Of a stretch of DNA of 33,352 nt, positions 21 to 30,228 are shown in pieces. This stretch comes from a virus (Duplodnaviria > Caudoviricetes). The position numbers and the translations under genes were made by a program. Under the pieces are notes generated by a model that made no database searches, was not told the DNA's origin, and saw only the letters and a list, made by a program, of their open reading frames with translations. The stretch spans positions 1-33,352 of IMG/VR virus record IMGVR_UViG_3300038974_000355; one strand, 5' to 3'. Every line of letters starts with the position of its first letter. Within the stretch, counting starts at the first letter, position 1.

Positions 21-59
21 GTATATTGTGTGTTTTCGTATATAATATTAATTGTTATT

Positions 60-75
60 TGTTCCACATGGAACA
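60..75. promoter_or_regulatory. parS: parS-like centromere site
   Basis: TGTTCCACATGGAACA: 15/16 match to the parS palindrome TGTTCCACGTGGAACA, in non-coding DNA. Confidence 0.65.
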
Positions 76-105
76 ATTTTGTTTTTGTCGAAAGCATTTT
101 TTGCG

Positions 106-143
106 GATGCATATTTATGCAATATAATGTATAAATATACATG
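106..143. promoter_or_regulatory. Tandem ARG-box-like palindromes (putative ArgR operator)
   Basis: GA-TGCAT-ATTT-ATGCA-AT (106-123) and AA-TGTAT-AAAT-ATACA-TG (126-143); two 18-mers 2 bp apart, fitting TG(A/C/T)AT-N4-AT(T/G/A)CA. Confidence 0.55.
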
Positions 144-154
144 TTTATTTATTT

Positions 155-182
155 TAATCTGATAACTAGTATTATGTTAAAT
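155..182 (+). other. dif: dif-like XerC/XerD recombination site
   Basis: TAATCTGATAA-CTAGTA-TTATGTTAAAT: 11-6-11 geometry, right arm identical to the canonical XerD arm TTATGTTAAAT, left arm ends in the conserved ATAA. Confidence 0.75.
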
Positions 183-197
183 AGAATAAAACGCAAT

Positions 198-215
198 ATT
201 GAATGAATATACAAT
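198..215. promoter_or_regulatory. Third ARG-box-like site
   Basis: AT-TGAAT-GAAT-ATACA-AT, one mismatch from TGAAT-N4-ATTCA; overlaps the direct repeat CAATATTGAAT (194-204, 212-222). Confidence 0.4.
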
Positions 216-233
216 ATTGAATATTAAGTAAAT

Positions 234-284: not shown

Positions 285-624
285 AATATAAAAATTCATC
301 AAATTTTCATTTTTGCAAAATTCATTTGTTTATTTTTTCTCCAAGTAAGACTAATTTTGGTAAAAATTATGATTTTGAGTTACTCCTTATACATTATATA
401 TGAAAATTACATATATTGCGGTCTACAATTTATTAATAATCAATATTTTTTGTGTTTTTGTTATTTTTATACCATAAAAAGTACCTAAAATAATGATTGG
501 TTGCAAGCCTATCCTTAATATTCTCATCTAAGCATAAAAATTGTTGGTGTTTAAAGCAATTATTTTGTGAGTTGTAGTTCTTGATTTTTAAACATCCGAC
601 AAGAAAAATAACAAGATATATAAT

Positions 625-1153: not shown

Positions 1154-2125
1154 ATGAAAACAGATAATGTTAATTTAAAAGGAGATAATATCTTTTCTCC
1201 AAGTTCAACTCCTTCTTATAAGCAGGGTATTCTTGATAGCCGTGTTGGATGTTTAGGTTCTTCGGATGCTTCTATGGTTGGAAAGGTAGGAATGTACGGA
1301 ATTGAATCTTTAAGTGAATCTGATTTACGCAGGCTTGCCGTAATGACCGGACAGGTAGCTCACATTGATTCATACAAGACGGAAGCAATGTTAAATGGAG
1401 ATGCCTTTGAAGCGTATTATTTTGAAAACTATTGCAATAATACAGCAAAGTCAAATCCGGAATACATTTCAAAACAAATGTCAAGTATTCTTGGATATAA
1501 ATGTATTACTCATATAGACATCGAGTATTATGTTGAATATACAAATGCTGTATTTTGGAAAGAATTGAAGTGCTTAAATGATATATCTATTTCAAAGGCA
1601 ATATCAAAGTATAAATATCAATTTGCTTGGCACTGGATGATAGGGAATGACTTGTATGATAATTTTATTCTTGTTGGAGTTTTAGGAAATCAAGATAATT
1701 TTGATAATATAGAAGAGTTTATATTTTGTCCTGATGATTTTAAATCAGAAATGATACATATAACAAAAGGGTTGGCTTTGATAGGAGATTTTGTCAAAGA
1801 TTTTGTTTATAAACCAAAAGAAGAACTTGAAGTATCTGATTTACTTGCTTGGGATGTTGAATTATGTGAACAAGCCGAAGCATATTTAAGACAGTTGTAT
1901 GATGCAGAAAACAAATTAAAGGAGTTTAAGGAAAAAATGCTCCAAATGATGAGTAGTAATGGGATAAAAAAAATAAGCAATGATTTTTTTAGCATATCTT
2001 ATGTTCCTGAATCATTTACTACAAGGCTTGATTCAGATAAATTATTTGCAGAAAATCCACAATTAAAAGGCAAATACGATAAAAAAACGAAAAAGAAAGC
2101 ATATTGTATATTAAAAGTTAAATAA
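1154..2125 (+). CDS. YqaJ/lambda-exonuclease-like recombination nuclease with C-terminal coiled-coil (Gp157-like) region
   Basis: R..CLGSSDAS, G..FE, HID, ELK and Y..Q motifs in PD-(D/E)XK order. Confidence 0.75.
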   Translation: MKTDNVNLKGDNIFSPSSTPSYKQGILDSRVGCLGSSDASMVGKVGMYGIESLSESDLRRLAVMTGQVAHIDSYKTEAMLNGDAFEAYYFENYCNNTAKSNPEYISKQMSSILGYKCITHIDIEYYVEYTNAVFWKELKCLNDISISKAISKYKYQFAWHWMIGNDLYDNFILVGVLGNQDNFDNIEEFIFCPDDFKSEMIHITKGLALIGDFVKDFVYKPKEELEVSDLLAWDVELCEQAEAYLRQLYDAENKLKEFKEKMLQMMSSNGIKKISNDFFSISYVPESFTTRLDSDKLFAENPQLKGKYDKKTKKKAYCILKVK

Positions 2126-2131
2126 TTTGCA

Positions 2132-2139
2132 TATCTTTG
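2132..2139 (+). promoter_or_regulatory. Bacteroidota -7 promoter element
   Basis: TATCTTTG in the intergenic gap 11 nt before ATG 2151. Confidence 0.55.
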
Positions 2140-2150
2140 TATATAATAAT

Positions 2151-2522
2151 ATGAAAACGAATAAAATTAATTTAAGGCTTGTCAAGAACATTGGAAATTA
2201 CGAGAGTGTTCATTTAGAGATTGAGGTTCAACTTTCTAAAGGAGATAATGCAAGTGATGCTTTTTGTTTTGCAAAAGAAGAGTTGGAAGAGTCGTTTATC
2301 GCTATCTCTAAATCAAGCAATGATACGAATAAAAATTCGAGTGATAATAGTAATAATAATCATGTTGATAAAAAGTGTTTAGTTCGAGGTACGAAAGAAT
2401 TTAACAATGTTGTTTCTTCTATTCTAAGTGGCAGAGCAACATTAGAACAAGCTCATCAATACTATAATATAAGCAAAAGAGATGCGTTGTATTTAGTAGA
2501 ACAATTAAATAATCAAAAATAA
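2151..2522 (+). CDS. Hypothetical phage protein
   Basis: ORF in the operon; ATG 2151 preferred over TTG 2127 because the latter overlaps the promoter element. Confidence 0.7.
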   Translation: MKTNKINLRLVKNIGNYESVHLEIEVQLSKGDNASDAFCFAKEELEESFIAISKSSNDTNKNSSDNSNNNHVDKKCLVRGTKEFNNVVSSILSGRATLEQAHQYYNISKRDALYLVEQLNNQK

Positions 2523-2544
2523 TACTAAGTTAAAAGAAAAGAGT

Positions 2545-2961
2545 ATGTTAAAAGGAAATAAAAAAGGCGGAAATTTATTAGGGTTACAGTATTTTAGGAA
2601 GAAAAAAGGGTTAAAGCAAACAGACATCTTGTTTGTTACCCAACCTACTGTTAGCCACATGGAGAGAGGTGGTAAGAATTTCACATTGACAACATTAGAC
2701 ATCTATTGTAATCAAGTTGGGATTGACTACGGATTTTTCAGCAAGTCGAGTGGATATACTTTTTCTATAAAAAAGAATGGTAATACCGTTATTGGATTTG
2801 TATTTCACTCAAAGAGAGCGCATCTTGACTTTGATATGGAACTCAAAATCGTTTCTGAATTTGATTACAAAGGAAATTTTGTTCGGAATATAAATTTCGA
2901 TTTTGATGAATCTTCATTTGTTGATATTATTTCATTTGTGGAAAGAGAATTTGCTAAATAA
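2545..2961 (+). CDS. XRE-family helix-turn-helix protein
   Basis: LQYFRKKKGLKQ..VTQPTVSHMERG...TLTTL pattern of Cro/CI-type HTH. Confidence 0.8.
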   Translation: MLKGNKKGGNLLGLQYFRKKKGLKQTDILFVTQPTVSHMERGGKNFTLTTLDIYCNQVGIDYGFFSKSSGYTFSIKKNGNTVIGFVFHSKRAHLDFDMELKIVSEFDYKGNFVRNINFDFDESSFVDIISFVEREFAK

Positions 2962-2969
2962 AAATAAGT

Positions 2970-3869
2970 ATGAGAAAGGCGTATAAATATTCTCTAAAAG
3001 GGAATAAGAAATATATTTGCCCTAAATGCGGAAGAAAAACATTTGTTCCATATTTCGATAACGAAACATCAGAGATTCTTAATTTAACTGTAGGAAAATG
3101 CGATAGAGAAAATAATTGTCAATATCATTTTACTCCGAAAGAGTTTTTTCATAGGAAAGGAGTTCCTATGCCTGAATATACTTTTGTTAAGAATAAAGAC
3201 GAAGATATTGTCAAACCGGTTTCTTTTATTGATGAATCATATTTTAATCCAACAGTAAGTGCATTTAAAGATAATAATTTATTCCAATGGATGATTAACT
3301 TATTTGATGATGATAAATGGAAAGAGGATTGTTATAATGCTATATCGAAATATAAGATAGGTTCTGCAAATGGTCGTTCGACTGTTTTTTGGCAAATAGA
3401 CATTGACAATAAAATAAGGTCAGGGAAAGTAATAACATATAAAAAAAATGGGAAAAGGAATAAAGATATTTTTCCTCCTGTAAAGTGGGTTCATGTCTTG
3501 CTAAAACTTAATGATTTTAATTTGAAACAATGCTTTTTCGGGGAACATCTTCTACTTAATGAAGAAGATAAAACAGTAGCCATTGTCGAAAGCGAGAAAA
3601 CAGCTCTTTTAATGAGTGTTTTTAGACCGAATATGATTTGGCTTGCAAGTGGAGGAAGTGAGGGGTTGTCTTCCGATAAATGTAAAGTTATTAAAGGTAA
3701 GTCAGTTATTCTTTATCCAGATTTAAAGCAATTTGATAAATGGAAAATAAAAGCAGATTTATACGGGTTTACAATAAGTACCGAGCTTGAATCGGTTGCT
3801 ACACAAGAGATGCGAGATAACGGGGATGATATTTTAGACTATTTATTGATGCAACATGGAAAGATATAA
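2970..3869 (+). CDS. Primase-like protein (Zn ribbon + TOPRIM-like; DUF6371-type of Bacteroidota elements)
   Basis: CPKCG..GKCDRENNCQYH zinc ribbon; QCFFGEHLL, IVESEKTA, WLASGG, LYPD motifs. Confidence 0.85.
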   Translation: MRKAYKYSLKGNKKYICPKCGRKTFVPYFDNETSEILNLTVGKCDRENNCQYHFTPKEFFHRKGVPMPEYTFVKNKDEDIVKPVSFIDESYFNPTVSAFKDNNLFQWMINLFDDDKWKEDCYNAISKYKIGSANGRSTVFWQIDIDNKIRSGKVITYKKNGKRNKDIFPPVKWVHVLLKLNDFNLKQCFFGEHLLLNEEDKTVAIVESEKTALLMSVFRPNMIWLASGGSEGLSSDKCKVIKGKSVILYPDLKQFDKWKIKADLYGFTISTELESVATQEMRDNGDDILDYLLMQHGKI

Positions 3870-5265
3870 AGCTATTTTAGAAGTAAATGATATTGATATA
3901 TCCGAAAACTCTGATTATGGTGTATTGCTAAGTCTAAATAACATAAATGTACTTGAATACCCAAAACATCCAAAATTCATTCGTTTATTGCCATTTTTAG
4001 ATATAACAGACTATCTTAAATCAATTGATTTTGAAAAGGAAAATGATATTTATTTAGCGATAAGAGAGATAGCTAAAATAGTTGTATCTGACCCTTCCGC
4101 AAGGGACGAAAAGTCGAGAAAAAATTTGAGAGTTGAATATGAGCTATTCTATACTCAATTTAAGAGAGTTTGTAGTACTTTAGATGGGTTGGAAAACTTT
4201 TGTAAGTCAACATCTGTGTATTTGTGGTCGAGCTACTTCTTGCCTAAAAAATTGAGAGAAAGAACTGAGAAGATGTTTTCAGTAGCTCCAGATAAAGACG
4301 AATTTATAAAATGGAAGAAAAAACTTATTGATATTTATTCTTTTTCTGACCTTGACATAGAGAAACTATCTTATTTTATATGCCAATGCAAAGATGATAA
4401 AATTCATCCATCATTAAATAAGGTATTATATGTTTGGGGTGGAAAGTTTACCGGAAAGACAACTATTGGAGGAACAGTAGTTAGCATATTAAATGGAGAG
4501 GAAGATTTGTCAAATATAAATATGTACACATCTGAATTATCCAGAGAATTGCAGATAGGACAGTTTGATATTCCTATATGCTCATCCTCTAATGCAGTAT
4601 TAATGGATGAAGCGTTCTATGCGGATATGAAGAGGACATACAATAAGTTTAAATCAATGATAACAAGCAGAGGTTGTAAGATGGAAGTTAAATTTAAATC
4701 TTCCGTTATCGTTGATTGCAGAAGAAATTACTTCTTAACAAGCAATGAGCCTCTTAGAAATTTTGTTAAAGATTGGGACGATAGGCGTTATTTAGAAATA
4801 CGAATGGATAATCGACCAAAACAAATATCTTTTTTAGAGATATATGATATTTGGAAATCTTTCATATTAAATTGTTATCCTCCAAATAATATAAGTATGA
4901 AAGAATGGTATGAGCAGTTAGCCGACAAGACTTTAGTTAAAGGAGCGTATGATGTAGAGAAAGAAGATGTATCTTGTGTGCTGTTCTCTTATGAGTTTTT
5001 AGATTCGTTAAGCGTGGATTCAGAGAATAAAAATTCATATACAATATCAAAGAAACAAATACAAAGGATATTAGAAGCATATTTGCCTAAGAAGATTATC
5101 AGCGATGATATATACGAAAAAGTAATAGTAGAAGCTTTTGGAGAACCAAACGCTCATAAAAAATGGAGAACTGTTAATATAAGAAATATCATATCAAAAA
5201 AACTATCAGAACAAGATTCTATTGATTATTCTACATTAGAATATGAAGATGAATCTCCTTTTTAA
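3856..5265 (+). CDS. P-loop NTPase, VirE/primase-associated helicase-like
   Basis: Walker A GGKFTGKTT, Walker B VLMDE, then LTSN and DDRRY motifs; overlaps the primase stop codon. Confidence 0.8.
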   Translation: MERYKAILEVNDIDISENSDYGVLLSLNNINVLEYPKHPKFIRLLPFLDITDYLKSIDFEKENDIYLAIREIAKIVVSDPSARDEKSRKNLRVEYELFYTQFKRVCSTLDGLENFCKSTSVYLWSSYFLPKKLRERTEKMFSVAPDKDEFIKWKKKLIDIYSFSDLDIEKLSYFICQCKDDKIHPSLNKVLYVWGGKFTGKTTIGGTVVSILNGEEDLSNINMYTSELSRELQIGQFDIPICSSSNAVLMDEAFYADMKRTYNKFKSMITSRGCKMEVKFKSSVIVDCRRNYFLTSNEPLRNFVKDWDDRRYLEIRMDNRPKQISFLEIYDIWKSFILNCYPPNNISMKEWYEQLADKTLVKGAYDVEKEDVSCVLFSYEFLDSLSVDSENKNSYTISKKQIQRILEAYLPKKIISDDIYEKVIVEAFGEPNAHKKWRTVNIRNIISKKLSEQDSIDYSTLEYEDESPF

Positions 5266-5285
5266 TTTTTAATTTTTAATTTTTA
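5259..5285 (+). repeat. Short tandem repeat (TTTTTAA) x ~4
   Basis: TTTTTAA TTTTTAA TTTTTAA TTTTTA between the helicase and the SSB-like gene. Confidence 0.6.
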
Positions 5286-5293
5286 TAAGTATT

Positions 5294-5998
5294 ATGGAAA
5301 TGACAAGTAGAGTAGGTAAAAAATACCTACAAATTAAACAGGGAGAAATATTTTTCCCAAGTAATGACAAAAGCGCTCCTAACTATCGTTCTGTTGATTG
5401 GACAAACAAATCGGGAGAAACAGGAACTTATGCCGGATTATTTTTTGATTCTATTAAGACAAAGATATTCTCTATTAAGTATTTTGACGGTAAATTCGGA
5501 ACTGTAATCAATATTGAAATAGAAGATGATTATATATTAGTTCTATCTGGAAGATATGCTGCTGCTATAGCTCCATTTATTCCAAGTATTGATGTTAGTA
5601 AAGAAGTTGTTATTAGACCTTACGACTTTGAAGACGAAAAGAAGGTCCGCCGTCAAGGAATATCTTTATCTCAAGACGGGAAAAAACTTTCTAACTATTA
5701 TGCTGTAAAAGATTCTAACGGGAAATTATCATATCCAAAAGGATTCCCTGAGCCACCAAAGCCAAAAGCAGGTGGCAAAATAACATCTCAAATGTGGACA
5801 TTGTATTTCAGACAATTAGAGGTTAAGTTTAGAGAAGAAAACGAAAATTGGATTGAGCAACAATCATTCCCAAATTTATTGAAATCATATAGAACGGAAG
5901 ATAACAAAAAAGATGATTTTGAGGAAGATTTAAATCAAAATCCTTTTGAAATAGAGACAGGAACTTCCGAAGAAGAAGTTAATTATTTGCCGTTTTAA
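5294..5998 (+). CDS. Putative single-stranded DNA-binding protein
   Basis: Beta-rich N-terminus, acidic C-terminal tail ending LPF, located in the replication module. Confidence 0.5.
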   Translation: MEMTSRVGKKYLQIKQGEIFFPSNDKSAPNYRSVDWTNKSGETGTYAGLFFDSIKTKIFSIKYFDGKFGTVINIEIEDDYILVLSGRYAAAIAPFIPSIDVSKEVVIRPYDFEDEKKVRRQGISLSQDGKKLSNYYAVKDSNGKLSYPKGFPEPPKPKAGGKITSQMWTLYFRQLEVKFREENENWIEQQSFPNLLKSYRTEDNKKDDFEEDLNQNPFEIETGTSEEEVNYLPF

Positions 5999-6000
5999 AG

Positions 6001-7335
6001 ATGGAACTTCATAAATATCAGCTTAAAATAGTTGATTTTATATTATCTCATACCAACAGCATTCTTGCTGTTGGTATGGGATTAGGTAAGACAATCAGTG
6101 TATTACACGCTATTGAAAAGGATAATCCAAATACATTGTTGATTGTCGCCCCGAAGAGAGTCGCCGAAACTGTTTGGATTCAAGAGGCTTTAAAATGGGG
6201 TTTAGTTGATATTGCAGATAAAATGATTCTTGTTGCTGGAACTCCATCTCAACGAAAATCAGCATTATTAAATGAAAGCAAGCCATACAAAGTTATAGGT
6301 AGAGATAATCTAAAAGATGTTGTCGGATTTAGCTTCAAATGGATAGTGATAGATGAACTTACCGGATTTAAAAATGTAGATTCAAACAGGAGTAAATATT
6401 TATCTACTATATCTCGAGAAAAAGCAATAGGGTTAACTGGAACATTTATTGCCAATGGAGCAATAGATGTTTTCGGACAATCAGCAGCCATATTTACACC
6501 AGTTAATCCATTAGGAGATAATTTTTATAGATGGAGAGCAACTATGTTTTACGATGCAGCACCTCCAAAAGTAAAATGGAAGAAATGGAAGTTGCTAAAA
6601 GGAATAACAATTGATGATGTGATTACTCCAATAAAAGAAAATATTATTACGCTTGATAGTTCTGATTATCTTAATATTCCTGAATTAACATCAGAAATAC
6701 ATTATGTTTCATTGTCAGATGAAGAACGGTCTAATTATGACATGATGCAATCATTTCTAATGTCTGATTTAGGAGCAGTAAAGAGTGAAGAGCAAAAATT
6801 TTCTAAGTTATGCACTATGTGCAATGGATTTGTATATACCAAACAAGAAGATGGATTAAGATTGTCAGCAAGGGGAAGCAAATCTACTAAACTTGACTTA
6901 ATTGCTGAGTTTTTAGAAAGGGCATATTCGGAAGGAGAACAAGTTTTGCTTTTTTATGCTTTTATAGAAGAGGCAATATGGTTATCAGAGAAACTAAAAG
7001 ATAGAGGAATTCCATTTTGTTCGGTAAGCAATAAAAGATTTAAAGAGCTATGGGATAATTATGAGGCTGGAGTTTTATTTGCTCATCCGGCAAGCGCAGG
7101 ACATGGATTAAACTTGCAAGATGGCGGTAGATTGTGCGTATGGAGTACGCTTACTTTTGATTATGATTTATTTGCACAAGCTAATGCAAGGCTTCAAAGG
7201 CAAGGGCAAAGAAGAGCAGTACAAAATCATTATTTTATTTGCAAAGATACTATTGAGGAACGACAATATAGTTCCCTACTAAAAAAAGACGCTGAATTTA
7301 ACGAATTTAAAGAATTAACAAAAATAAACATATAA
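6001..7335 (+). CDS. SNF2-family (SF2) phage helicase
   Basis: GMGLGKT, IVIDE, GLTGT, HPASAGHGLNLQ and QANARLQRQGQ motifs. Confidence 0.92.
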   Translation: MELHKYQLKIVDFILSHTNSILAVGMGLGKTISVLHAIEKDNPNTLLIVAPKRVAETVWIQEALKWGLVDIADKMILVAGTPSQRKSALLNESKPYKVIGRDNLKDVVGFSFKWIVIDELTGFKNVDSNRSKYLSTISREKAIGLTGTFIANGAIDVFGQSAAIFTPVNPLGDNFYRWRATMFYDAAPPKVKWKKWKLLKGITIDDVITPIKENIITLDSSDYLNIPELTSEIHYVSLSDEERSNYDMMQSFLMSDLGAVKSEEQKFSKLCTMCNGFVYTKQEDGLRLSARGSKSTKLDLIAEFLERAYSEGEQVLLFYAFIEEAIWLSEKLKDRGIPFCSVSNKRFKELWDNYEAGVLFAHPASAGHGLNLQDGGRLCVWSTLTFDYDLFAQANARLQRQGQRRAVQNHYFICKDTIEERQYSSLLKKDAEFNEFKELTKINI

Positions 7336-7339
7336 TAAC

Positions 7340-7630
7340 ATGAATAAAGAAGAGCTGATACTCGAAGAGAGATGCGTATTATACGCAAGGACAAAAGGGA
7401 TAGTAACAATAAAAGGCAATCCTGACGAGCATAGAGGAATACCTGATAGACAATTTCTAAAAGATGGTATAACGGCATTTGTTGAATTTAAGGTTGGAAG
7501 GAATAAAAGGACTAAGGCTCAATATGATTGGGAACGCTGGTGCAAGAATAACAACTTCCCGTATCTTTGTACAAAATCACAAATAGAATTTATTTATTTT
7601 ATTAATAAAACTTTTTCATTAACTTTGTAG
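7340..7630 (+). CDS. VRR-NUC domain nuclease
   Basis: GIPDR..FVEFK..Q motif; usual partner of the phage SNF2 helicase. Confidence 0.88.
   Translation: MNKEELILEERCVLYARTKGIVTIKGNPDEHRGIPDRQFLKDGITAFVEFKVGRNKRTKAQYDWERWCKNNNFPYLCTKSQIEFIYFINKTFSLTL
7620..7627 (+). promoter_or_regulatory. Bacteroidota -7 promoter element
   Basis: TAACTTTG 26 nt upstream of ATG 7654. Confidence 0.5.
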
Positions 7631-7653: not shown

Positions 7654-8100
7654 ATGGCAAGGACAAAAAGTAATGATTTTCAAACTTATATAGGTATCCG
7701 AACAACCGATGGATTGGGATGGCTGTATAATTATCGAGGCTCACAAGTAGCGCTATTTCTTGTAATGGCATCGATGAGCACAGGTATAGATAATGTTGTT
7801 GATTTTAGCGCAGCTAAAAAGAAACGAGTTCAAGCAATGCTTGGATTAACATCTCAATCGTTAATTCGCTTGCAACGAGAGTTAGAGCAAGGAGAATCTC
7901 CATTGATTGTTCGTATTTCATATACGGAATTTATGTTAAATCCGGATGCTTTTATTGGGCACAACATGTCAGTAAGATATTATCAACAAAATAGAGTTAA
8001 ATTCGCCAAAGCCTTACAATGGCGTAGGCAAAATGATTTTGGAAATGGCACAACGCGCAAAATCTACATGGAAGAAAACGAAGCAGTATCTGGCGAATAG
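7654..8100 (+). CDS. Winged-helix protein resembling the RepL replication/maintenance family
   Basis: HTH-like segment (VQAMLGLTSQSLIRLQRELE) followed by FMLNP motif. Confidence 0.5.
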   Translation: MARTKSNDFQTYIGIRTTDGLGWLYNYRGSQVALFLVMASMSTGIDNVVDFSAAKKKRVQAMLGLTSQSLIRLQRELEQGESPLIVRISYTEFMLNPDAFIGHNMSVRYYQQNRVKFAKALQWRRQNDFGNGTTRKIYMEENEAVSGE

Positions 8101-8797
8101 CGCTGCAAATAAGGCAAATCCAGATTACATTCCAAAAGAAATTAAAAGCAGAGTAAAAAACAGAAAATTGTCTGCCGAAATGCGTTTAGCTTTTGAGAAT
8201 GAGATAAAAGATGCTGAAAGGCGTGTTATGATGTTAAATGAAGGTAAGAGAACTCTTCCTAAAGTAAATCAGTCAGCATTAAGAATAGAAAAAAAGAATC
8301 CGAGCAAGTCCGTTTATGACATAATCGGCTTAAATACTTCTGTTCTTCCTGTTAGTTACACTAAATTGACAGATGGGAATAATATTATATTTACAGGCAT
8401 GGAAGATATTAGAGAAAAATTTGAAGATTATGTAAAATGGGCTGAATCAAACCCTATTCAGGTTGATAAGTTTATTCATTCCGGAGCACAAGCAGGGGCT
8501 AAAACGGTAGATATATCGAGGCCTATTTTATTAGAGAGTTTTCTCGCTCGAATAGGGATGACTCCTTCCCAATGGAAAAAGATGAGAAAAAACGATTTAT
8601 TTAAAGACGATTGTGAATATATTGAGAACAGAATAAATTCTGGGCTTATAGAGGGAGGAATGGTTGGTTCTCTCGACCCTGTAATGGTAAGCAAATTAAT
8701 TCCAAAAATAGAAGATGAAATTGAAACTCCGTCAAGCATAATCCCAATACAAATAAATTTAGGTAACTTAAAATCAGACAATAACCTTATTGAATAA
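8033..8797 (+). CDS. terS: Terminase small subunit (P22 gp3-like DNA-packaging domain) with N-terminal extension
   Basis: FEDYVKWAESNP..RP..LESF..IE..I..EGGMVG pattern; abuts terL; the start may be ATG 8045. Confidence 0.8.
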   Translation: MILEMAQRAKSTWKKTKQYLANSAANKANPDYIPKEIKSRVKNRKLSAEMRLAFENEIKDAERRVMMLNEGKRTLPKVNQSALRIEKKNPSKSVYDIIGLNTSVLPVSYTKLTDGNNIIFTGMEDIREKFEDYVKWAESNPIQVDKFIHSGAQAGAKTVDISRPILLESFLARIGMTPSQWKKMRKNDLFKDDCEYIENRINSGLIEGGMVGSLDPVMVSKLIPKIEDEIETPSSIIPIQINLGNLKSDNNLIE

Positions 8798-10212
8798 TGG
8801 CATCAGTTACATTAAATCCGAATCAACTATACTACACTATGTTGGAGTTTATGGTTGGTTCAAAAGAACGCCCAGTGGAAATAATAAATCTTGGTGGTAG
8901 CTCAGCTGCTAAGAGTTATGATTTTTTTCACTTGGCGTTCACTCTTTGTGCAAATTATAGGGTAAAAAATCTTCCTGATGGAGATTTAAAGCTATCTCCA
9001 GACGGAGACATGCCTTTAGTCGTACATTGCTTTAGAAATACATTAGATATGGCTAAAAACGCCTGCTATTACGATGCCCTCAATGTTCTTCGTTTAATGG
9101 GGATATTTGATATGGTTGAAAAGACCGAGCCAACAAGCCTTAGACCTAAAATAAAATTTCCTAATGGAAGTATTGTCGAATTTTTTGGGTTGCCAGAGTT
9201 TGAGGGTCAAAAAGAATGGGTCAGATACCATATAGGATATTTTAATGAAATTTTCGAAGTAGAAGATAAAGGGAGATTAAAAAGCATTATAACGAGATGT
9301 CGGATAGCAAATGTATATGATAGCAACCCTAAGCTTGCTGAACATTGGATAATAGACCAAATAAATCCAAACAATAAAAGACAACAATATAATCATCTTA
9401 TCTATAGAGATAATAAGTTTGTTCCAAAAGAATTTATTACATTTATAGAAAGTGAATGCCCATGGGATTTAAAAGATTTTGTTTATGACGAAGTGAATAA
9501 AAGATGGGGTTGGACTAAGCCTATATCAGAACGACTTCCGAACATTAAAAACATAGAAGCCGGAACTGTAGATAAACGACATTGGCTAATATACGGAGAG
9601 GGAGAAAGATATGCAAGCGAAGGCCAAGTTTTTGATGATGTCAATTTTATATCTTCATTCCCAAATCCAGAAATATTTGACGATATTTGTTTTGGATTAG
9701 ATTTTGGCTGGAATAAAGATGAATGCTCATTATCTATTAATGGAAAGAAGGATAATTCTATTACATCTCACTGTTTGATTTATGAGCCTGTAAATCATCC
9801 GGAAAAGTTATGCGATATGTGCAATATTGCAATTAAGGGAGTTTATCCGCAAATAGACAACATCCCGGAAGGAACTTATGTCTTTATATTTACAGATTCG
9901 CAAGATAAATTTGATGGGAAACAATTTGTAACACAAATGAATATTTATGCAGCAAGAAAAGGGTATAAAATTAGATTCCATAAAGTAAAAAAATCAGGGT
10001 CAAAGCTTGACAGAGCATTAAATCTAAAGAGGTTTAAATGGAATGTAGTCTATTCTTCTGTCACTAAAAGAGAAATATCTAAATACATTTACAAGGAAAT
10101 AGGAGGAAAACCAACAAACATGATAAACGAAAGAACAGGAAGAAACAATTTCGACCACTTTATAGATTCAGTTGTTTATCCCGTATGGATGCTTTGGCGA
10201 TACGCTGGATAA
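8797..10212 (+). CDS. terL: Terminase large subunit (PBSX/terminase_3-like)
   Basis: Walker A-like GGSSAAKS, Walker B YFNE, DSNP, nuclease GLDFG and DHFIDSVVY. Confidence 0.92.
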   Translation: MASVTLNPNQLYYTMLEFMVGSKERPVEIINLGGSSAAKSYDFFHLAFTLCANYRVKNLPDGDLKLSPDGDMPLVVHCFRNTLDMAKNACYYDALNVLRLMGIFDMVEKTEPTSLRPKIKFPNGSIVEFFGLPEFEGQKEWVRYHIGYFNEIFEVEDKGRLKSIITRCRIANVYDSNPKLAEHWIIDQINPNNKRQQYNHLIYRDNKFVPKEFITFIESECPWDLKDFVYDEVNKRWGWTKPISERLPNIKNIEAGTVDKRHWLIYGEGERYASEGQVFDDVNFISSFPNPEIFDDICFGLDFGWNKDECSLSINGKKDNSITSHCLIYEPVNHPEKLCDMCNIAIKGVYPQIDNIPEGTYVFIFTDSQDKFDGKQFVTQMNIYAARKGYKIRFHKVKKSGSKLDRALNLKRFKWNVVYSSVTKREISKYIYKEIGGKPTNMINERTGRNNFDHFIDSVVYPVWMLWRYAG

Positions 10213-10222
10213 TTTTTTTTTA

Positions 10223-10269
10223 AAATATAATTATTTTATTTTAAAAAACAAAATAAAATAATTATATTT
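10223..10269. repeat. Perfect 20-bp A/T-only inverted repeat with 7-nt spacer
   Basis: AAATATAATTATTTTATTTT (10223-10242) / AAAATAAAATAATTATATTT (10250-10269). Confidence 0.85.
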
Positions 10270-10270
10270 G
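10263..10270 (+). promoter_or_regulatory. Bacteroidota -7 promoter element for the head operon
   Basis: TATATTTG(C) 7 nt before the portal ATG 10278. Confidence 0.55.
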
Positions 10271-10277
10271 CGCAGAT

Positions 10278-11447
10278 ATGTTAGGTATAAAGTCGATAAG
10301 AGGATTTTTTAGGTCAACATTCAGGTCTATAGGTGGATTGGTGTTCCCTTTTAGTAGAAAAAGCGAGCCATTTACGACAAGCAATGTTGCTGGGGCTACA
10401 AGAGCATTCTCTTCTTGCACTCCAGTACTCGTATCTCTAAATAAGATTGGAGATGCTGTTGAACAAAGCCGATTGTGGGTTTATAATTCGTCTGACGATT
10501 CAATAAATATCAGCTTATCTTCTTCTCTTGCCGGATTTATGAAAAAATATCCATTTTTTGGAGATGTAGCTATTTGCTATAAGCTATACGGTAAGGCTTA
10601 TATTAGAAGAAAAAATTATATAGGGGCAGGATATGATTATGTCCACATCTTGAACCCATTTATAGAGGAAAATGAATTTGATGATTATGTAGGAATTGAC
10701 GGAAAAAAAAGAGTCAAAAACTATCGGATTACAAACGAAAATGGGACACAGTCTATTGTTAGTGCTAAAGACATATTAAAAATAGGAGAAGGATATTCGT
10801 ATGAAGTTTCTCCTGAAATAGCAGGATTAGAATATTTTATTAATGCTTATATATTCGCAGCAGAAACGATGAAAGAATCGTATGCTGACGGCGGAGCACG
10901 AAAACTTGTTTCTCTCGATGTTGGTGATGTTGATGCACTTGCAAGTGGAGTGCTTGATACAGAAAGAAATGTTCTTCAAAAGAAATTAGGAACAACTTAT
11001 GGGCAAAGAACAGGGCAATCTAAACTTATTGTTACGGCAGCAAAAGGGACATCAATTGACTTGACTACTCCTATTGCACAACTTGACGGGAATACGAATC
11101 TCAAGTTGTTCTTTTCTGAAATAGCAATAGCATTTGGAGTACCACCTGCGTTAGTCGGTATTAATACAAGTGCATATAAAAAGATTACAGAAGCTCGGCA
11201 AGAGTTTTATCAGCAAACAGTATCATCTGTTGCTCAAAAAATATTTCATCCTTTTTTAACATGGATAAATAAATCGTCAGAAGATACATATATAAAGGTT
11301 GATTTTTCTGAACTTGATTTTTATCAAGAGGCATTATCAAAGAGAGCATCCGTTATTCAGCAATCGGCACAAGGACTTTCCAATTTAGTTAATTCAAATA
11401 TACTTACAGTTGAGGAAGCTCGTAATGAATATTTTAAATTGATGTAA
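10278..11447 (+). CDS. Portal protein (HK97-like)
   Basis: Follows terL; 389 aa; LYGKAYI, IAIAFGVPPALVG and LTVEEAR motifs. Confidence 0.9.
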   Translation: MLGIKSIRGFFRSTFRSIGGLVFPFSRKSEPFTTSNVAGATRAFSSCTPVLVSLNKIGDAVEQSRLWVYNSSDDSINISLSSSLAGFMKKYPFFGDVAICYKLYGKAYIRRKNYIGAGYDYVHILNPFIEENEFDDYVGIDGKKRVKNYRITNENGTQSIVSAKDILKIGEGYSYEVSPEIAGLEYFINAYIFAAETMKESYADGGARKLVSLDVGDVDALASGVLDTERNVLQKKLGTTYGQRTGQSKLIVTAAKGTSIDLTTPIAQLDGNTNLKLFFSEIAIAFGVPPALVGINTSAYKKITEARQEFYQQTVSSVAQKIFHPFLTWINKSSEDTYIKVDFSELDFYQEALSKRASVIQQSAQGLSNLVNSNILTVEEARNEYFKLM

Positions 11448-11453
11448 TTAATT

Positions 11454-12200
11454 ATGAAAAATAAAATCATAGAAAAGGCTATTAAGGATTATAAAGATAA
11501 AACAAATCCTAACAATGTCGTAAAGAAACTTTTTGAATTGAAAGAACTCTCATCTGATAAACTTGATTTAACTGACGAGATTTCTTCGTTTAAAGAAAAG
11601 ACAGAGAAGAATATCATAAAGTATGCTGATTGCGTATCTATAAATCCGACAATAACTATTCAAACAAATAAGGATAGCGACGGATCAACAGATAATGATT
11701 CTGTTTTGCATTTAAAAGCAGTAATAAATAGCTGCAATTACCTCGATAGTCACGGAGATGTTCATCTCCCCGGATGCTGGGATGAAGATTTGAAGTCAAA
11801 CAACACAAGGAAATTGCTTAAAGAGCATAAAAGAGAATTTGAGTCTGTTATTAGCGATGATATGAAAGCTTCCGTACAAGAAATAGAAGAATTGGGTGGA
11901 GTTCAATGTCTTGTTTTCGAGGGAAATATTCATAAAGAAGATAATCCATTAATGTTTTCAAAATATAAACAAAAGAAAGTAAATCAACATTCTGTAGGAA
12001 TGAGATATTTAAAGACTTTGTTTTGTGTTAATTCAGATGAGCCCGAATACTCTCAATATAAAGAAAATTGGGATAAATATTCTTCTTCTGTTAAGAACCT
12101 AAAAAAAGATACAAAATATTTTACCGCAGTATTAAAATGTTCTTGCATTGAGGGAAGTGCTGTTTTATTCGGTTCAAATCAATATACTCCTGTTTTATAA
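11454..12200 (+). CDS. Prohead maturation protease (HK97-type)
   Basis: DSHGDVH, LLKEH, HSVGM and EGSAVLFGSN motifs; between portal and capsid. Confidence 0.85.
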   Translation: MKNKIIEKAIKDYKDKTNPNNVVKKLFELKELSSDKLDLTDEISSFKEKTEKNIIKYADCVSINPTITIQTNKDSDGSTDNDSVLHLKAVINSCNYLDSHGDVHLPGCWDEDLKSNNTRKLLKEHKREFESVISDDMKASVQEIEELGGVQCLVFEGNIHKEDNPLMFSKYKQKKVNQHSVGMRYLKTLFCVNSDEPEYSQYKENWDKYSSSVKNLKKDTKYFTAVLKCSCIEGSAVLFGSNQYTPVL

Positions 12201-12225
12201 ATTCGTTTAATTAAATATAAATATT

Positions 12226-13392
12226 ATGACTAAAGAAGAATTATTAAAATTATTCAATGAGGATGAAGCTAAAGGTGTAGCTGCAATCATTGATTTTGTG
12301 TTTTCCGAGGTAAAATCAGGGGTAAGCCTTGAGGACTTGGACAACAAAATAAAAGAATTAGATTTAGAAGAAAAACTCAAAGCTATACAAGATAGAATTG
12401 AAGATGCTAAATCAGAAGGAATAGAAAGCAAATTGCTTGCTGATATTAAAAAAGCCGTTTCAGACGGTACATTCAAAACCGGGAAAAGGGTAAGCTTTGA
12501 AACAAAAGAAGCAACTCCTATGACTACGGTATCTACTGGCGCTCAAACAGCAGGATTAACAGGTGTGCGCAGAATGTCTGGAATCAATGCTTTACCGGTG
12601 TATATTTCAGACCTTTACAATACTCTTGTAAAAGGATATATCGCAGAAGGTACTGTCGAGTGGGTAAATGAAGGTACTCTTGAAGGCGATTTCGCTTGGG
12701 TTGGAGAAAACGCCTTAAAGCCTTATCTTTCTACTACTTGGTCTAAAGAAGTGGCAAGTCCTAAAACTATCTCAGGACTTGCAAAAGGGTCAGTTAAAAT
12801 GGCTCACGAATGGTCGTCATTCTGGCGTGTGTTCCAAAACATAATGGTAACTCGTTTGAACAAAAAATTAGAACACGACTTACTGTTTGGAGATGGTGTC
12901 GGAGATAACTTGAGAGGTATTACGCTTGATTTTGCCGCTTATAACAATCCTGTTTTGGCGGGTACAGTATCTTCACCTAATCTTGTCAATGCCATTAATG
13001 CTGCTGCCGACCAAATTCGATTTGCCGGATTTATTCCGTCTGTTGTCGTTGTATCTACGCAAGATATGGCATCTTTAAAATATATTAAAGATGATAACGG
13101 TAGAGATATGTACAGCGAATTATCATCTCAATTATCTTGGGCTAAAATAATAGAAGTAGATATACCTGAAATGGTAGGAAATATCGCAGTTTTTGACGAC
13201 CGTTATTGGGAAGTTTACGAACACATGAGATTAAATGTGCAAGTAGCAGACCAAAATGACGATGATTTCGAAAAAAATATGATGACAATGCGCGTTGAAA
13301 TGATGTTGTATTCATTCCATAGCTCAATTTACAACTTGTCAGGAGTATATGCAAGTATTGCTGCTATTCTTGCAAGTATTGAAAAACAATAA
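12226..13392 (+). CDS. Major capsid protein (HK97 fold with N-terminal delta domain)
   Basis: Coiled-coil N-terminus; WVGENALKP, LLFGDG...LRGI, KDDNGR and DFEKNMMTMRVE motifs. Confidence 0.93.
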   Translation: MTKEELLKLFNEDEAKGVAAIIDFVFSEVKSGVSLEDLDNKIKELDLEEKLKAIQDRIEDAKSEGIESKLLADIKKAVSDGTFKTGKRVSFETKEATPMTTVSTGAQTAGLTGVRRMSGINALPVYISDLYNTLVKGYIAEGTVEWVNEGTLEGDFAWVGENALKPYLSTTWSKEVASPKTISGLAKGSVKMAHEWSSFWRVFQNIMVTRLNKKLEHDLLFGDGVGDNLRGITLDFAAYNNPVLAGTVSSPNLVNAINAAADQIRFAGFIPSVVVVSTQDMASLKYIKDDNGRDMYSELSSQLSWAKIIEVDIPEMVGNIAVFDDRYWEVYEHMRLNVQVADQNDDDFEKNMMTMRVEMMLYSFHSSIYNLSGVYASIAAILASIEKQ

Positions 13393-13401
13393 TTATTATA
13401 T

Positions 13402-13431
13402 AGTATTGCTGATTAAAATATCAGCAATACT
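13402..13431 (+). terminator. Stem-loop after the capsid gene (terminator or mRNA-stabilising hairpin)
   Basis: Perfect 12-bp stem AGTATTGCTGAT/ATCAGCAATACT with 6-nt loop; no clear U-tract. Confidence 0.6.
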
Positions 13432-13458
13432 GTTATAAACTTAAAAAAAATAAAAAAT

Positions 13459-13644
13459 ATGACAACAGCAGAACAAGCCGAATTGGCTAAGCAAAAAAAA
13501 GCAGAAAAAGTTGCTTATAAGGAGAATGTAGTTATTATAGGCACAGGAAAATCTTCTTTTTTAAAAGAAGGAGTAGAATATAAAACCGGTGTTTTAACCG
13601 CAAAAGAGTTGGTAAAATCAGGAAAGGCTACGGCTAAGAAATAA
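13459..13644 (+). CDS. Small hypothetical protein following the capsid gene
   Basis: 61 aa; A-rich leader; typical position. Confidence 0.75.
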   Translation: MTTAEQAELAKQKKAEKVAYKENVVIIGTGKSSFLKEGVEYKTGVLTAKELVKSGKATAKK

Positions 13645-13648
13645 TATT

Positions 13649-14179
13649 ATGGCATCCTTAACTTTTCTTTCAAGTTCTTATTTCTATGGCGTTTTAAAAT
13701 TAGACGACATTTGGAATTATAAAATGGATGAAGGCGCAAGCGCTATGCAAATATCGCTTGCTGCTAACAACCAAAAACAAATGAACGCTTATTTGCAAAA
13801 TTATGAATACGAAATTGTAAAGAAATATTTTGGAGTTGAAGTAGCTAATGGTATTTATAGTTCCGATTCCGATTATTCATCACAAAAGGATATAATATTT
13901 GGATTAATTGAGGGGTCAATTCCATCTTATCCTCGCAGTTGTATTGCAAATTTTATATGGTGTCTTGTTTATCGTGATTCAAGGAATCAGTTTACGCAAA
14001 AGGGATTTGTATCGCAAGATGTAGCGAATACTACTCGTAGGACAGCGAATACTCTTTATGTGTCTGCATTTAATCTCGGTGTAGATATATTGGTAGAAAC
14101 ATATAAGAAACTTAAAGATGCAAATCTTAGCTTTGAACCTACTTGTATTCCTGATTATGTAAATATATTTGGGATATGA
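13649..14179 (+). CDS. Putative head-tail adaptor
   Basis: Position and size; helical protein with SYF.G.L N-terminus and IANFI motif. Confidence 0.5.
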   Translation: MASLTFLSSSYFYGVLKLDDIWNYKMDEGASAMQISLAANNQKQMNAYLQNYEYEIVKKYFGVEVANGIYSSDSDYSSQKDIIFGLIEGSIPSYPRSCIANFIWCLVYRDSRNQFTQKGFVSQDVANTTRRTANTLYVSAFNLGVDILVETYKKLKDANLSFEPTCIPDYVNIFGI

Positions 14180-14826
14180 TTTACAGCAAAGAATTAATAG
14201 GCCACTTATCTTATCTTATGTCTAATACACTTAGATATGATGTAGTGTTTCAAACTGCTTTGAAAAAATATCAGTTTCAGATAAGTAATTCGTACTGGTT
14301 TATACCTATTCCCGGAACTGACCGAAGTGAGCATATTGCTATGTTTTTCTATTATTATGGTTCGCTAAAAGAATTATCTTCTTTTTATAATACAGGCAAT
14401 CCTGAATGTAAATATCCATCTTTATTCAATGTAGCTCCTACATTAATACAGAGAGGAATCGATGGAGATATTTATAATTTTAAATTTTTATTTACTTGTA
14501 TAGTAGATAAAGCTTGGAACACAGAAATAATTGAAAATCTTGTTGTAAAGCCTATTTTTTCAAGGATGGAATCAGCGATGAGAAAAGCTTTAGACGACAG
14601 TCCTTTTATTGTAGGTTGGAATCCGAATTATAAAATAATATTTGACAGCACAGATAATGTAGGTGGGTCTATCCACCAAAGTTATTTTGGAGATTTCGTT
14701 TCCGTAGCTATCATTGATAATCTTGAAATAATTGTAAATAATGATTATTGCGAAAAAGAGTATAAAAAGTTAACAGAAGATTATCAAAATTACTTACTAA
14801 AGGCTCTCGGTCGTGATATAGGATGA
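14176..14826 (+). CDS. Putative neck/tail-completion protein
   Basis: ATGA-coupled to the upstream gene; directly precedes the major tail gene; KYP motif. Confidence 0.45.
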   Translation: MIYSKELIGHLSYLMSNTLRYDVVFQTALKKYQFQISNSYWFIPIPGTDRSEHIAMFFYYYGSLKELSSFYNTGNPECKYPSLFNVAPTLIQRGIDGDIYNFKFLFTCIVDKAWNTEIIENLVVKPIFSRMESAMRKALDDSPFIVGWNPNYKIIFDSTDNVGGSIHQSYFGDFVSVAIIDNLEIIVNNDYCEKEYKKLTEDYQNYLLKALGRDIG

Positions 14827-14854
14827 TTTTTTAACATTTTAAATAAATAAATAT

Positions 14855-15799
14855 ATGAGTGGAAGAATTAATTACGCCCCATGCGTTGCTGGTGGCGTTG
14901 CAGACCTCGGGACGAAGTTCTGCGTTAAAGACAATTATAACCAATTTAGGGGTTTGATTGTTGCTCAAAAAGGGCAATCGTTTACGGCTGCCGAAGTGGA
15001 AACTATTGAGGCTTCATTAAAAAAAGCGCAATATTATACTGACGGTCGTATCGTATATATTCCTCTTGCAGGAGTATCTTCTGACGACACACAAGCAGCT
15101 ACAGAAACAACAACAGTAGATGGAGCTATTCACGGTCGCCAAGATAATGCACCTTCTTTTACTGCACAGCTGAAAACAAAATCAATTTATCTGACTAAAC
15201 AATTATTGAAATTAAACGGTCAAGAATTGGTTATCTATTTTATTACCGATACATCATTGATGTTGGGTAAAGCACTCGAAGATGGTTCGTTTACAGGAAA
15301 ATCAGGAACATTGTACACAGATACTTATCGTCCTGTTGCCGATAATAGCACTCGTATTGGAACTGTAAAAATCGTAGTAGATGATGCTGCTGAATTTGGA
15401 GCTTGGTTAGATTATATCGAAATTGACAATACTATTTTGTCAGAGTTGGCTATGATTAACGAGGTTAAACTTACAGCCACAAAAGGAGCAGGGCTTAGCA
15501 CGACAATTAATGTCGCTTCATTGGCTGACAACCATATTAATATTGGTTCTATCGAGCCAGAATTAGCTACCCCAGAGGCTTGGATTGTAGTTAATTTGGC
15601 AACCGGTGTTTTAATTCCGTCAGATGAATTGACATTCACTTTATTACCGGGAGGTAATGTTCAAATTGTTTCAACGACCGCTTATCCAAATGTGTCTATA
15701 TCTTTAGCGACACCAGAAACATTAATCGAAAATGGTATCGGTAGCATTAATGGTGGTACTTACGAGGGTATGCCTGTTAAAACAGGATTTTCCGCATAA
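14855..15799 (+). CDS. Major tail (tube) protein
   Basis: 314 aa, T/A/G-rich; position between neck genes and tape measure; long A/T leader. Confidence 0.7.
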   Translation: MSGRINYAPCVAGGVADLGTKFCVKDNYNQFRGLIVAQKGQSFTAAEVETIEASLKKAQYYTDGRIVYIPLAGVSSDDTQAATETTTVDGAIHGRQDNAPSFTAQLKTKSIYLTKQLLKLNGQELVIYFITDTSLMLGKALEDGSFTGKSGTLYTDTYRPVADNSTRIGTVKIVVDDAAEFGAWLDYIEIDNTILSELAMINEVKLTATKGAGLSTTINVASLADNHINIGSIEPELATPEAWIVVNLATGVLIPSDELTFTLLPGGNVQIVSTTAYPNVSISLATPETLIENGIGSINGGTYEGMPVKTGFSA

Positions 15800-15801
15800 T
15801 T

Positions 15802-16104
15802 ATGAAACATATTAAGGTAGGAACTACCTATATTTCAGAGGCTTTGTTTGATTTGAGTAAAGATGATTTTATATCGTCTTTATCTCCAATCTTCGGGAAC
15901 AGTGAAGATAAGAAAGAAGAGTTTATTGCTCTTTATGATAGTTTCCACGACAAAGAGAAAGAAGATGCTTTGGAAGATAAGAAAGAAGTTGAATCAAAGG
16001 AATATGAAAATACAACTTTTGATGAAAATGATTCTACATTAACTAAAGTTGATTCTATTTCCACGAAAGAAGAGCCAAGGAAAAAGAAGAAAACAAAAAA
16101 ATAA
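15802..16104 (+). CDS. Hypothetical protein (acidic with basic tail)
   Basis: ORF 2 nt after the tail gene, ending just before a terminator. Confidence 0.7.
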   Translation: MKHIKVGTTYISEALFDLSKDDFISSLSPIFGNSEDKKEEFIALYDSFHDKEKEDALEDKKEVESKEYENTTFDENDSTLTKVDSISTKEEPRKKKKTKK

Positions 16105-16109
16105 CTATT

Positions 16110-16153
16110 AAGTGCGCCTAATTATCCTCGTGTTTAGGCGCACTTTTAATTTT
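16110..16153 (+). terminator. Intrinsic terminator
   Basis: 12-bp stem AAGTGCGCCTAA (16110-16121)/TTAGGCGCACTT (16134-16145) followed by TTAATTTT. Confidence 0.75.
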
Positions 16154-16158
16154 ATACT

Positions 16159-16641
16159 ATGGATGCAGCTATAGCATGGCTTATGGAGATGAGAGATTAT
16201 GCTGTTTCTCAATTGCAAGAAGAATATCCTACGCAAGAATATACTTTAGAGCAAATAAAATGGGCAATATCTGTCTTATCAGTAGATATTGTTTCTTTAC
16301 TTATATCACAACTTGCTTCCGGAGAATTATCTGACGGAAGCAACACACCTATGTATGCTGATTCGACATTAAAGCGAAAACAATATTATCCTAAAACAAT
16401 TTTTGGAGATGGCATACATTGGAGCCTTAGAGATGAGGGAAATTTATATCGTTCGTTAAAAGCAGATACAGATGATGGTGAATCTATTATATTTGAAAAC
16501 AAAGCGACATTAGGATTGATTAATCAAATGACAAAACACGGATTAGTTATCGAGCAATTCCTATCTCTTAATGAATTGAACAAACAAAAAGCATTTGATA
16601 TGATTAATAAAAAACTAAGCGAAAAATACAATGGGTTGTAA
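16159..16641 (+). CDS. Putative virion morphogenesis/neck protein
   Basis: G..DG...P.YA.STLKRK and L.DEG.LYRSL motifs typical of phage morphogenesis proteins. Confidence 0.55.
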   Translation: MDAAIAWLMEMRDYAVSQLQEEYPTQEYTLEQIKWAISVLSVDIVSLLISQLASGELSDGSNTPMYADSTLKRKQYYPKTIFGDGIHWSLRDEGNLYRSLKADTDDGESIIFENKATLGLINQMTKHGLVIEQFLSLNELNKQKAFDMINKKLSEKYNGL

Positions 16642-16840
16642 ATGTCAAGAAAAAACAGTAAATTTGCTATATGAAAAAGCAAAGTCAGAAGTTGAAATTA
16701 TACTCAATAAATCAAATAAAACATCATATTATCTCTATCGTGAAAAATCGGATTGGTGGTATGTTGAGAAAATATCTTGCGTTCCTAAAAATGCTAAGAA
16801 TGTTGAATTTATCTACCGACCTAACAAAATTAAAAGTTAA
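16631..16840 (+). CDS. Small hypothetical protein (MGCKC start)
   Basis: Overlaps the upstream stop; 69 aa. Confidence 0.6.
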   Translation: MGCKCQEKTVNLLYEKAKSEVEIILNKSNKTSYYLYREKSDWWYVEKISCVPKNAKNVEFIYRPNKIKS

Positions 16841-17387
16841 AGATTATTTTTCTATAATAATTGGAGATTATAGAGCTATACAAAAGATAAAACTACCATT
16901 TCTTAATACTACATCTGATTTTTTTGATGCAAGCAGGTCTATATCAGACCAATATTCTAAAATCAGTTCTGATTCTTTATTTCCTGAAAGAAAATCACGC
17001 TCTGACGAACTAAAAGAGATGGTTGCTCGGATAGAAATATATAAAGGAGCTTTTTATGTTTTATCTTTAAAGGAAAGTGATGTTTGTATTAATAAGTTAA
17101 AAGAAATAAATTTTGTTGTTCCAGATAATAAGGAAAAACTACTCAAAGAGCTGGAAAAATCAATTATATCTTTAAGTAGAAAAATATCTGATTTAATTGC
17201 AGAAATAAAATTAACATCTAAAACTGATGCCCCAAAAGTAGAATCTAAAGACTTGACAAAGCAATTGCTTATTTTGCGTAAAAACGGAATTATGATTGAC
17301 GGTAATAGCACCGTTGAAGAATATATTGTTGGATGCAATATCCTTAACGAAGAATTTAAAGCATTAAAAAAACACCATAAAAAATAG
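16791..17387 (+). CDS. Putative tail assembly chaperone
   Basis: Immediately before tape measure; helical; frame is open from 16671 but an internal ATG (16761, 16791 or 16800) is the more likely start. Confidence 0.55.
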   Translation: MLRMLNLSTDLTKLKVKDYFSIIIGDYRAIQKIKLPFLNTTSDFFDASRSISDQYSKISSDSLFPERKSRSDELKEMVARIEIYKGAFYVLSLKESDVCINKLKEINFVVPDNKEKLLKELEKSIISLSRKISDLIAEIKLTSKTDAPKVESKDLTKQLLILRKNGIMIDGNSTVEEYIVGCNILNEEFKALKKHHKK

Positions 17388-17388
17388 T

Positions 17389-21099: not shown

Positions 21100-21100
21100 T

Positions 21101-21394: not shown

Positions 21395-21396
21395 TT

Positions 21397-30217: not shown

Positions 30218-30228
30218 AATATAATATT

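Follow-up and report, generated by a model that had tools for sequence, protein, structure and literature searches.

Host-type parS, ARG and dif sites packed into a gene-free patch of a Bacteroidales-type tailed phage, and their possible use in the upkeep of an unintegrated phage circle

Why would a tailed phage pack three kinds of sites that its hosts use on their own chromosomes into some 160 bases, and which proteins would act on them? The window analyzed here is a whole IMG/VR entry, a linear fragment of 33,352 nt with a CheckV completeness of 38%, and the phage is a Bacteroidales-type tailed phage. The patch lies within positions 1–1153, a region with no credible gene. Six-frame searches and a scan of 39 ORFs in the 33 kb returned no tyrosine integrase, ParB or resolvase domain, which bears out the claim of an earlier first-pass annotation that the window encodes none of these; for ParA, the search consisted of ORF scans within the sequenced 33 kb. 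Because the patch has no matching genes in the sequenced part, borrowing of host proteins is likely. Judging from the sites themselves, positions 60–215 very probably bind host ParB, ArgR and XerCD, and we favor, with a probability of roughly 0.45, the reading that the patch would serve the upkeep of the phage DNA as an unintegrated circle. The patch consists of the following sites:

60–75, no strand: parS of the chromosomal ParB type with one central mismatch (motif match and shuffles)
106–123 (core 108–121), no strand: ARG box 1, symmetric, 16.4 bits on the host matrix
126–143 (core 128–141), no strand: ARG box 2, 17.6 bits on the host matrix
155–187, plus strand: dif-like Xer core, with XerC arm 155–165, spacer 166–171, XerD arm 172–182 and host-like flank 183–187
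198–215 (core 200–213), no strand: ARG box 3, weaker, single, on the XerD side, 12.9 bits

All five sites were confirmed at the positions and in the order given by the first-pass annotation, with stronger statistics than it could provide. The 16-bp palindrome of the host parS consensus is present at 60–75 with one mismatch; it is the sole match in 33 kb (0.05 expected), and no match arose in 5,000 dinucleotide shuffles of positions 1–1153. One Bacteroidales genome (G070) contains the identical 16-mer, with a canonical parS some 5 kb away. We read 60–75 as a parS and a candidate ParB site, with no cognate parAB on the same replicon as far as the sequenced 33 kb goes, in which there is no ParB domain.

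For the ARG boxes, a loose consensus proved uninformative, with 33 matches against 30.5 expected, which is chance level, and a host-derived matrix was therefore used instead. Of 30 argR loci fetched from Bacteroidales genomes, 26 were usable, and their leaders were searched de novo with no seeding from the window. The resulting consensus comprises two 14-base cores with a 21-base period (26 leaders), and its position in argR leaders suggests that it is the ArgR operator. The phage pair agrees with this motif at 27 of 28 core positions, with a period of 20 instead of 21. Its two cores are the best-scoring ARG boxes in the phage genome, the pair score was reached in none of 5,000 shuffles of 1–1153, and the runner-up pair in the genome reaches 2.3 bits against 16.4. 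Box 2 shares 16 to 18 identical bases with four argR leaders (L219, L225, L233 and L235). None of the 26 host argR pairs scores as high as the phage pair, in part since the first host box also serves as a promoter element; box 1 of the phage lacks the −7 element present there. Box 3 scores within the host range, is weak alone, and has one equal outside the patch. A box at 9938–9951 lies inside a gene and was taken as chance.

Tandem boxes are the form that the operator takes in host argR leaders, which speaks for separate action, with the ARG boxes forming an arginine-sensing operator of a phage promoter while dif and parS merely share the sole large gene-free region. The host Spo0A boxes in phi29 (PMC2731898; this and the other papers cited here by PMC number are represented by excerpts) provide a precedent, and similar parS and ARG patches elsewhere mostly occur without dif. 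However, no Bacteroidota −7 element overlaps the boxes, the nearest promoter match begins 110 bases past box 3, and the sites are confined to 160 of 1153 gene-free bases, closely flanking dif, all of which makes this explanation quite improbable.

The dif-like site has the layout of an 11-base XerC arm, a 6-base spacer and an 11-base XerD arm. It is the sole match in 33 kb (155–182; 0.06 expected), and 10 of 5,000 shuffles of 1–1153 reach its arm score when scored with a matrix built on 19 Bacteroidales dif sites. Its score of 15.3 bits lies under those of all 19 host sites (21.7–34.7), a consequence of its XerC arm, which is unusual for the order. This arm does occur in one Bacteroidales genome (G006), and a Marinilabiliales genome (L076) has a site in which both arms are identical to those of the phage. 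The same arms are found in 19 sites of a collection of 185,579 genomes, none of them with the phage spacer, which is also missing among the sites listed for 85 of 121 Bacteroidales genomes and departs at positions 1 and 4 from the spacer most frequent in hosts. The flank at 183–187 carries the majority base of 20 host dif sites at all five positions. The Bacteroidetes dif predictions in the supplement of PMC3025954 were left out of this analysis. A second perfect XerD arm at 7931–7941 is gene-internal and was taken as chance, and a lone XerC-arm-like sequence lies at 637–664 with no adjoining XerD arm. Separately, in a Bacteroidales genome (L252, G122:C16:35752-35825) a pair of dif sites is separated by 54 bases, and one of the two has a non-canonical spacer; an element once integrated by Xer may have left this scar.

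Could the patch be host DNA? It lies at the contig edge, in DNA of 24% GC, and no close relative confirms it, as would be expected of host flank, a misassembly or chance. Among 30 host dif loci, none had a parS within 1.5 kb or an ARG box within 300 bp, and among 30 host parS loci none had an ARG box or dif within 300 bp; hosts thus hold these sites apart, and the adjacency is indeed unlike a chromosome, as had been proposed from the sequence. Contigs of metagenome runs X1, X2, X4 and X5, from two studies, span dif with no loose end there. In three of these runs they extend leftward with the same letters and a copy of the phage motif at 819–840, so that this motif stands on both sides of the patch. 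Overall, assemblies extend 12–513 bases to the left of position 1, with no common end. Because hosts separate the sites and the assemblies cross them unbroken, the patch is neither host flank nor an integration junction. With the shuffle tests added, host flank or misassembly, which the earlier reading had named as its own refutation, is largely ruled out, and together with chance it is scarcely credible as an explanation. All eight strain differences among those listed (at 235–631) fall outside the patch, which is weak evidence because the list does not cover every difference.

The remainder of the window is laid out as follows:

234–262, no strand: C-run/G-run inverted repeat, read from the sequence
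325–359, plus strand: match to a Bacteroidota-type promoter
591–960, no strand: cluster of short AAAGTATA/AGTAT repeats (repeat statistics)
1154–7630, plus strand: recombination and replication genes, namely a RecE-like exonuclease, an HTH protein, DUF6371 and DUF5906 proteins, an SNF2 helicase and an endonuclease (ORF scan)
8033–21099, plus strand: terminase small and large subunits, portal, major capsid and tape measure proteins (ORF scan)
33298–33352, no strand: end of an IS982-family insertion sequence, which breaks the contig and cuts into a small phage ORF (33139–33312)

None of the phage ORFs matched a tail-sheath family, which fits a siphovirus without showing it. The terminase profile had no match among solved structures, and no Rfam family or KOPS motif was found. 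Two endolysins, a peptidase M15 and a lysozyme, lie on opposite strands at 29342–29758 and 30981–31406, and 31403–31570 is a short fragment of a C-5 methyltransferase. The genome continues beyond the record: a contig of 35,447 bases is on record for the terminase protein, other assemblies reach 513 bases further left and at least 931 further right, and the unseen part amounts to at least 1.4 kb. Because the contig is incomplete, an integrase could sit there. The runs that contain the phage are bioreactor and anaerobic-digester samples; X1–X3 are the best matches and possibly the source samples of the record, while in X5–X7 the phage share is small and has no bearing on habitat.

The insertion sequence bears on whether the phage resides in its host. 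A Bacteroides fragilis plasmid carries a 980-bp IS982, and 16 bases of the phage-borne end are identical to each of its two terminal repeats. In three runs a 986-base contig starts at this end and is common to the phage and another replicon. Contig depth is a rough measure; by it, the 986-base contig approximates the sum of phage and other replicon (133 versus 65+62.5, 33 versus 24+10, and 107 versus 98+9), and the ratio of the two (65:62.5, 24:10 and 98:9) is near 1:1 in one of the three runs. We infer that a host IS jumped into a resident phage whose copy number roughly equaled that of the other replicon in one sample, with amplification in the other. The episome or carrier state suggested by the first-pass annotation is therefore hinted at, as far as residence goes, by the shared IS982 and the 1:1 depth in one run, while two of the three ratios are not 1:1. 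In the contigs of the 1:1 run dif is intact, which argues against integration through dif. We rejected the idea that a 53-kb contig joined on the right is the remainder of an 88-kb genome, since the depth of that contig varies independently. The IS end pattern gave two weak matches in 301 genomes, and the one inspected was chance; the other flank of IS982 could name the phage host.

Integration at dif had also been put forward, and our results do not support it. Under that explanation, the phage dif would be an attachment site for XerCD-mediated integration at chromosomal dif, similar to IMEX (CTX, VGJ, TLC and Bacteroidetes microviruses), elements with no integrase that share with the phage a dif-like site and an altered spacer (PMC5357621, PMC3091885). 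The missing integrase in the sequenced 33 kb would suit this, as would the proposed integration of Bacteroidetes microviruses via dif (PMC3091885) and a metagenomic case, L326, with a near-canonical Bacteroidales dif where gene direction switches. Unlike the IMEX described in those excerpts, which are filamentous, satellite or small ssDNA phages integrated at dif, ours is a tailed dsDNA phage, and its contigs from four runs, the 1:1-depth run included, contain no attL/attR junction or copy flanked by hybrid dif sites, with the caveat that contigs drop rare forms. Moreover, the spacer is not identical to a host chromosomal dif and is mismatched in both halves, including the first XerC-side base, in a comparison with Bacteroidales genomes that may not include the true host. 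We consider integration highly improbable. Self-recombination is favored instead, because the phage spacer is unlike host spacers.

For upkeep as an unintegrated circle, the sites suggest the following steps. XerCD would recombine two phage dif copies and thereby close the circle or resolve multimers, while the altered spacer would disfavor recombination with chromosomal dif. ParB bound at parS would pass the circle to host ParA. ArgR might bend or bridge the DNA beside the core; this is the most speculative step and the weakest link. With regard to the proteins themselves, ArgR is found in 41 of 121 Bacteroidales genomes and a PepA-family peptidase in 40 of 61, with both present in G006. Borrowing of host SMC, as had been suggested, is not supported: no SMC hinge domain was found in 61 Bacteroidales genomes, against a hit in 10 of 14 controls, in a search that addresses the hinge and not divergent condensins.

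The closest model for the ArgR step would be ColE1 cer and pJHCMW1 mwr, where a mobile element likewise combines a Xer core with an ARG box on the XerC side and borrows host XerCD and ArgR (PMC2409434, PMC2699498, PMC5357621). At cer, whose spacer measures 8 bp, PepA binds about 180 bp of DNA, and a single ARG box lies within it, 98 bp from the core (PMC2409434). The phage is built differently: its tandem boxes lie 31 and 11 bp from the XerC arm, another box follows on the side of XerD, the spacer measures 6 bp, and a parS is present as well. A cer-like arrangement, as first proposed, is thus not supported in its geometry; ArgR and a PepA-family peptidase, a candidate DNA-binding protein, are encoded by part of the Bacteroidales genomes. 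According to the excerpt of PMC2409434, ArgR failed to bind an Arg box predicted next to loxP in P1, and the excerpt of PMC3878776 has no ArgR passage. Besides the departure from the cer spacing and from its 8-bp spacer, the single, imperfect parS counts against upkeep as a circle.

We then consider other phages. The closest terminase relative in IMG/VR has 36% identity, and ORF1 alone found no relative there. The patch is absent from 35 terminase loci and 9 ORF1 loci of distant relatives (≤39% identity), and parS from all five whole records of relatives. None of 301 Bacteroidales genomes held a terminase relative, and BLAST of the patch against cultured phages gave chance matches only. Exact parS sites occur in about 9,600 IMG/VR stretches, and for this reason phage borrowing of host sites may be common and largely unexplored. 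A parS with a full dif was found in three IMG/VR cases at the scanned spacings, where 0.4–1.0 are expected if there are 10,000–25,000 sites. A metagenome scan gave nine rows, eight of them independent, one of which had already been found; several of these have dif-like bases outside the pattern (9/9 in L326). A parS with an ARG box was found in 13 rows in 9 groups, two of them coding-looking, against 0.7–1.7 expected; several have further boxes, and most have no dif. Across 128 parS loci, the ARG excess (2 versus 0.05 expected) stems from one locus. No integrase or ParB domain is present in five such patch-bearing records, one of them complete.

Individual cases vary. In L340, two parS are accompanied by an ARG box and an imperfect dif. 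In L318 (1448–1675, oriented) and L320, a proteobacterial-type dif shares a 230-base stretch of a phage-like contig with parS and DnaA boxes. In L333 (723–767), L336 (7882–8062) and L327 (8297–8352), ARG boxes flank or abut parS with no dif, L327 being part of a complete 54.5-kb phage that has neither an integrase nor a ParB domain. L030 (680–1141) and L330 (4489–4560) have XerD half-site arrays with parS and dif directly upstream of terminase genes. XerD half-sites beside parS were also considered as SMC unloaders and rejected (1 versus 1.05 expected in 128 loci, with no SMC hinge in the 61 genomes of the order). Finally, three small linear phages (L015/L016, L018/L019 and L341/L342) have parS in both of their inverted terminal repeats, which are 133, 192 and 470 bp long.

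That unrelated phages repeat pairs of these sites speaks for the circle reading. Yet because similar patches occur in unrelated phages, some of them in linear terminal repeats, maintenance of an episome is not the only possible use. Indeed, the parS in terminal repeats and the prevalence of parS and ARG patches with no dif mean that these sites can serve other ends, and because unrelated phages carry either kind of patch, lytic end-handling and decoy roles come into play. In lytic end-handling, the patch would lie in a terminal redundancy of the injected DNA, where host ParB, ArgR and XerCD would protect, bridge or join genome ends or process concatemers, similar to the way in which Cre-loxP circularizes P1. 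Apart from the terminal-repeat phages, this is suggested by eight patches in other phages (L013, L030, L321, L330, L331, L332, L337 and L339) that have a PHROG-confirmed terminase gene no more than about 2.5 kb away, a figure to be read against the bias of short viral contigs towards terminase genes. C/G runs occur near 12 of 21 host-site patches versus 25 of 128 random viral parS loci, the pattern having been picked after the data were inspected, and ArgR alone has been suggested to synapse two boxes (PMC2409434). Here, however, the patch is 8 kb away from the terminase genes, and the assemblies that pass position 1 on the left share no end. We hold end-handling to be unlikely.

A decoy would work through many lytic copies that soak up ArgR, derepressing arginine synthesis, and ParB and XerCD, stalling host segregation and division. 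The high score of the phage ARG pair relative to the 26 host pairs would fit, with the reservation already made for the host's first box, as would L030, L330 and L018, whose XerD half-site arrays or several parS are not all able to recombine. Yet a sponge should favor many perfect copies, whereas the phage has a single parS and a single dif, both imperfect, and IMG/VR shows no excess of parS beside a single XerD arm (28 cases, where 14–35 are expected). A decoy is decidedly unlikely.

Among phages that keep themselves outside the chromosome, P1 and the proposed phage-plasmid state of crAssphage resemble what is inferred here, namely an extrachromosomal tailed phage in need of partition and multimer resolution (PMC2409434, PMC10983915). 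P1 encodes its own partition system and Cre, in contrast to the sequenced 33 kb here, in which ORF scans and six-frame domain searches found no such partition or resolvase genes. Bacteroidales are not known to sporulate. In the tailed Bacillus phage phi29, five dispersed host parS sites are used for spore entrapment, and the genome also has Spo0A boxes; phi29 thus carries in cis what host ParB (Spo0J) and a regulator of the host recognize, encodes neither protein, and differs from ours, where one parS is packed with dif and ARG boxes (PMC2731898). Each element therefore has a precedent in these excerpts: parS in phi29, ArgR with Xer at cer and mwr, and dif use in Bacteroidetes microviruses. 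In the open-licence literature, as covered by listings and the starts of abstracts, we found no tailed phage that combines parS with dif or carries the full set of three.

More broadly, and with considerable doubt, we suggest that tailed phages of several host groups may have independently built gene-free "chromosome mimic" patches (parS, dif, ARG, DnaA), with the present phage a plasmid-like prophage that has no partition, resolvase or integrase gene at all, ArgR a new kind of Xer accessory, and persistence possibly tied to arginine supply. Predictions of phage lifestyle rely on genes such as integrase and parAB, and a lifestyle that resides in cis sites alone would be invisible to them; if upkeep through such sites is real, plasmid-like phages would be miscalled lytic by every gene-based predictor, and it could account for how integrase-less Bacteroidales phages persist so long. 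To our knowledge, this patch offers the first handle on ArgR beside dif outside enterobacterial plasmids, and as a 160-base object it is open to direct testing.

A few further features lie near the patch. The repeats at 591–960 had been described as an iteron-like origin; the cluster is real (matched in 2 of 2,000 shuffles), and no evidence points to an origin, so that it stands as a candidate origin or operator of a phage protein. The C-run/G-run repeat at 234–262 is possibly a packaging or terminus mark, and similar motifs adjoin the patches of L030, L324, L330, L331 and L340. Finally, a 12-base AT-rich motif, a possible phage promoter or operator, occurs at 41–52, 644–655, 823–834, 855–866 and 30220–30231, on both sides of the patch, as well as to the left of the contig.
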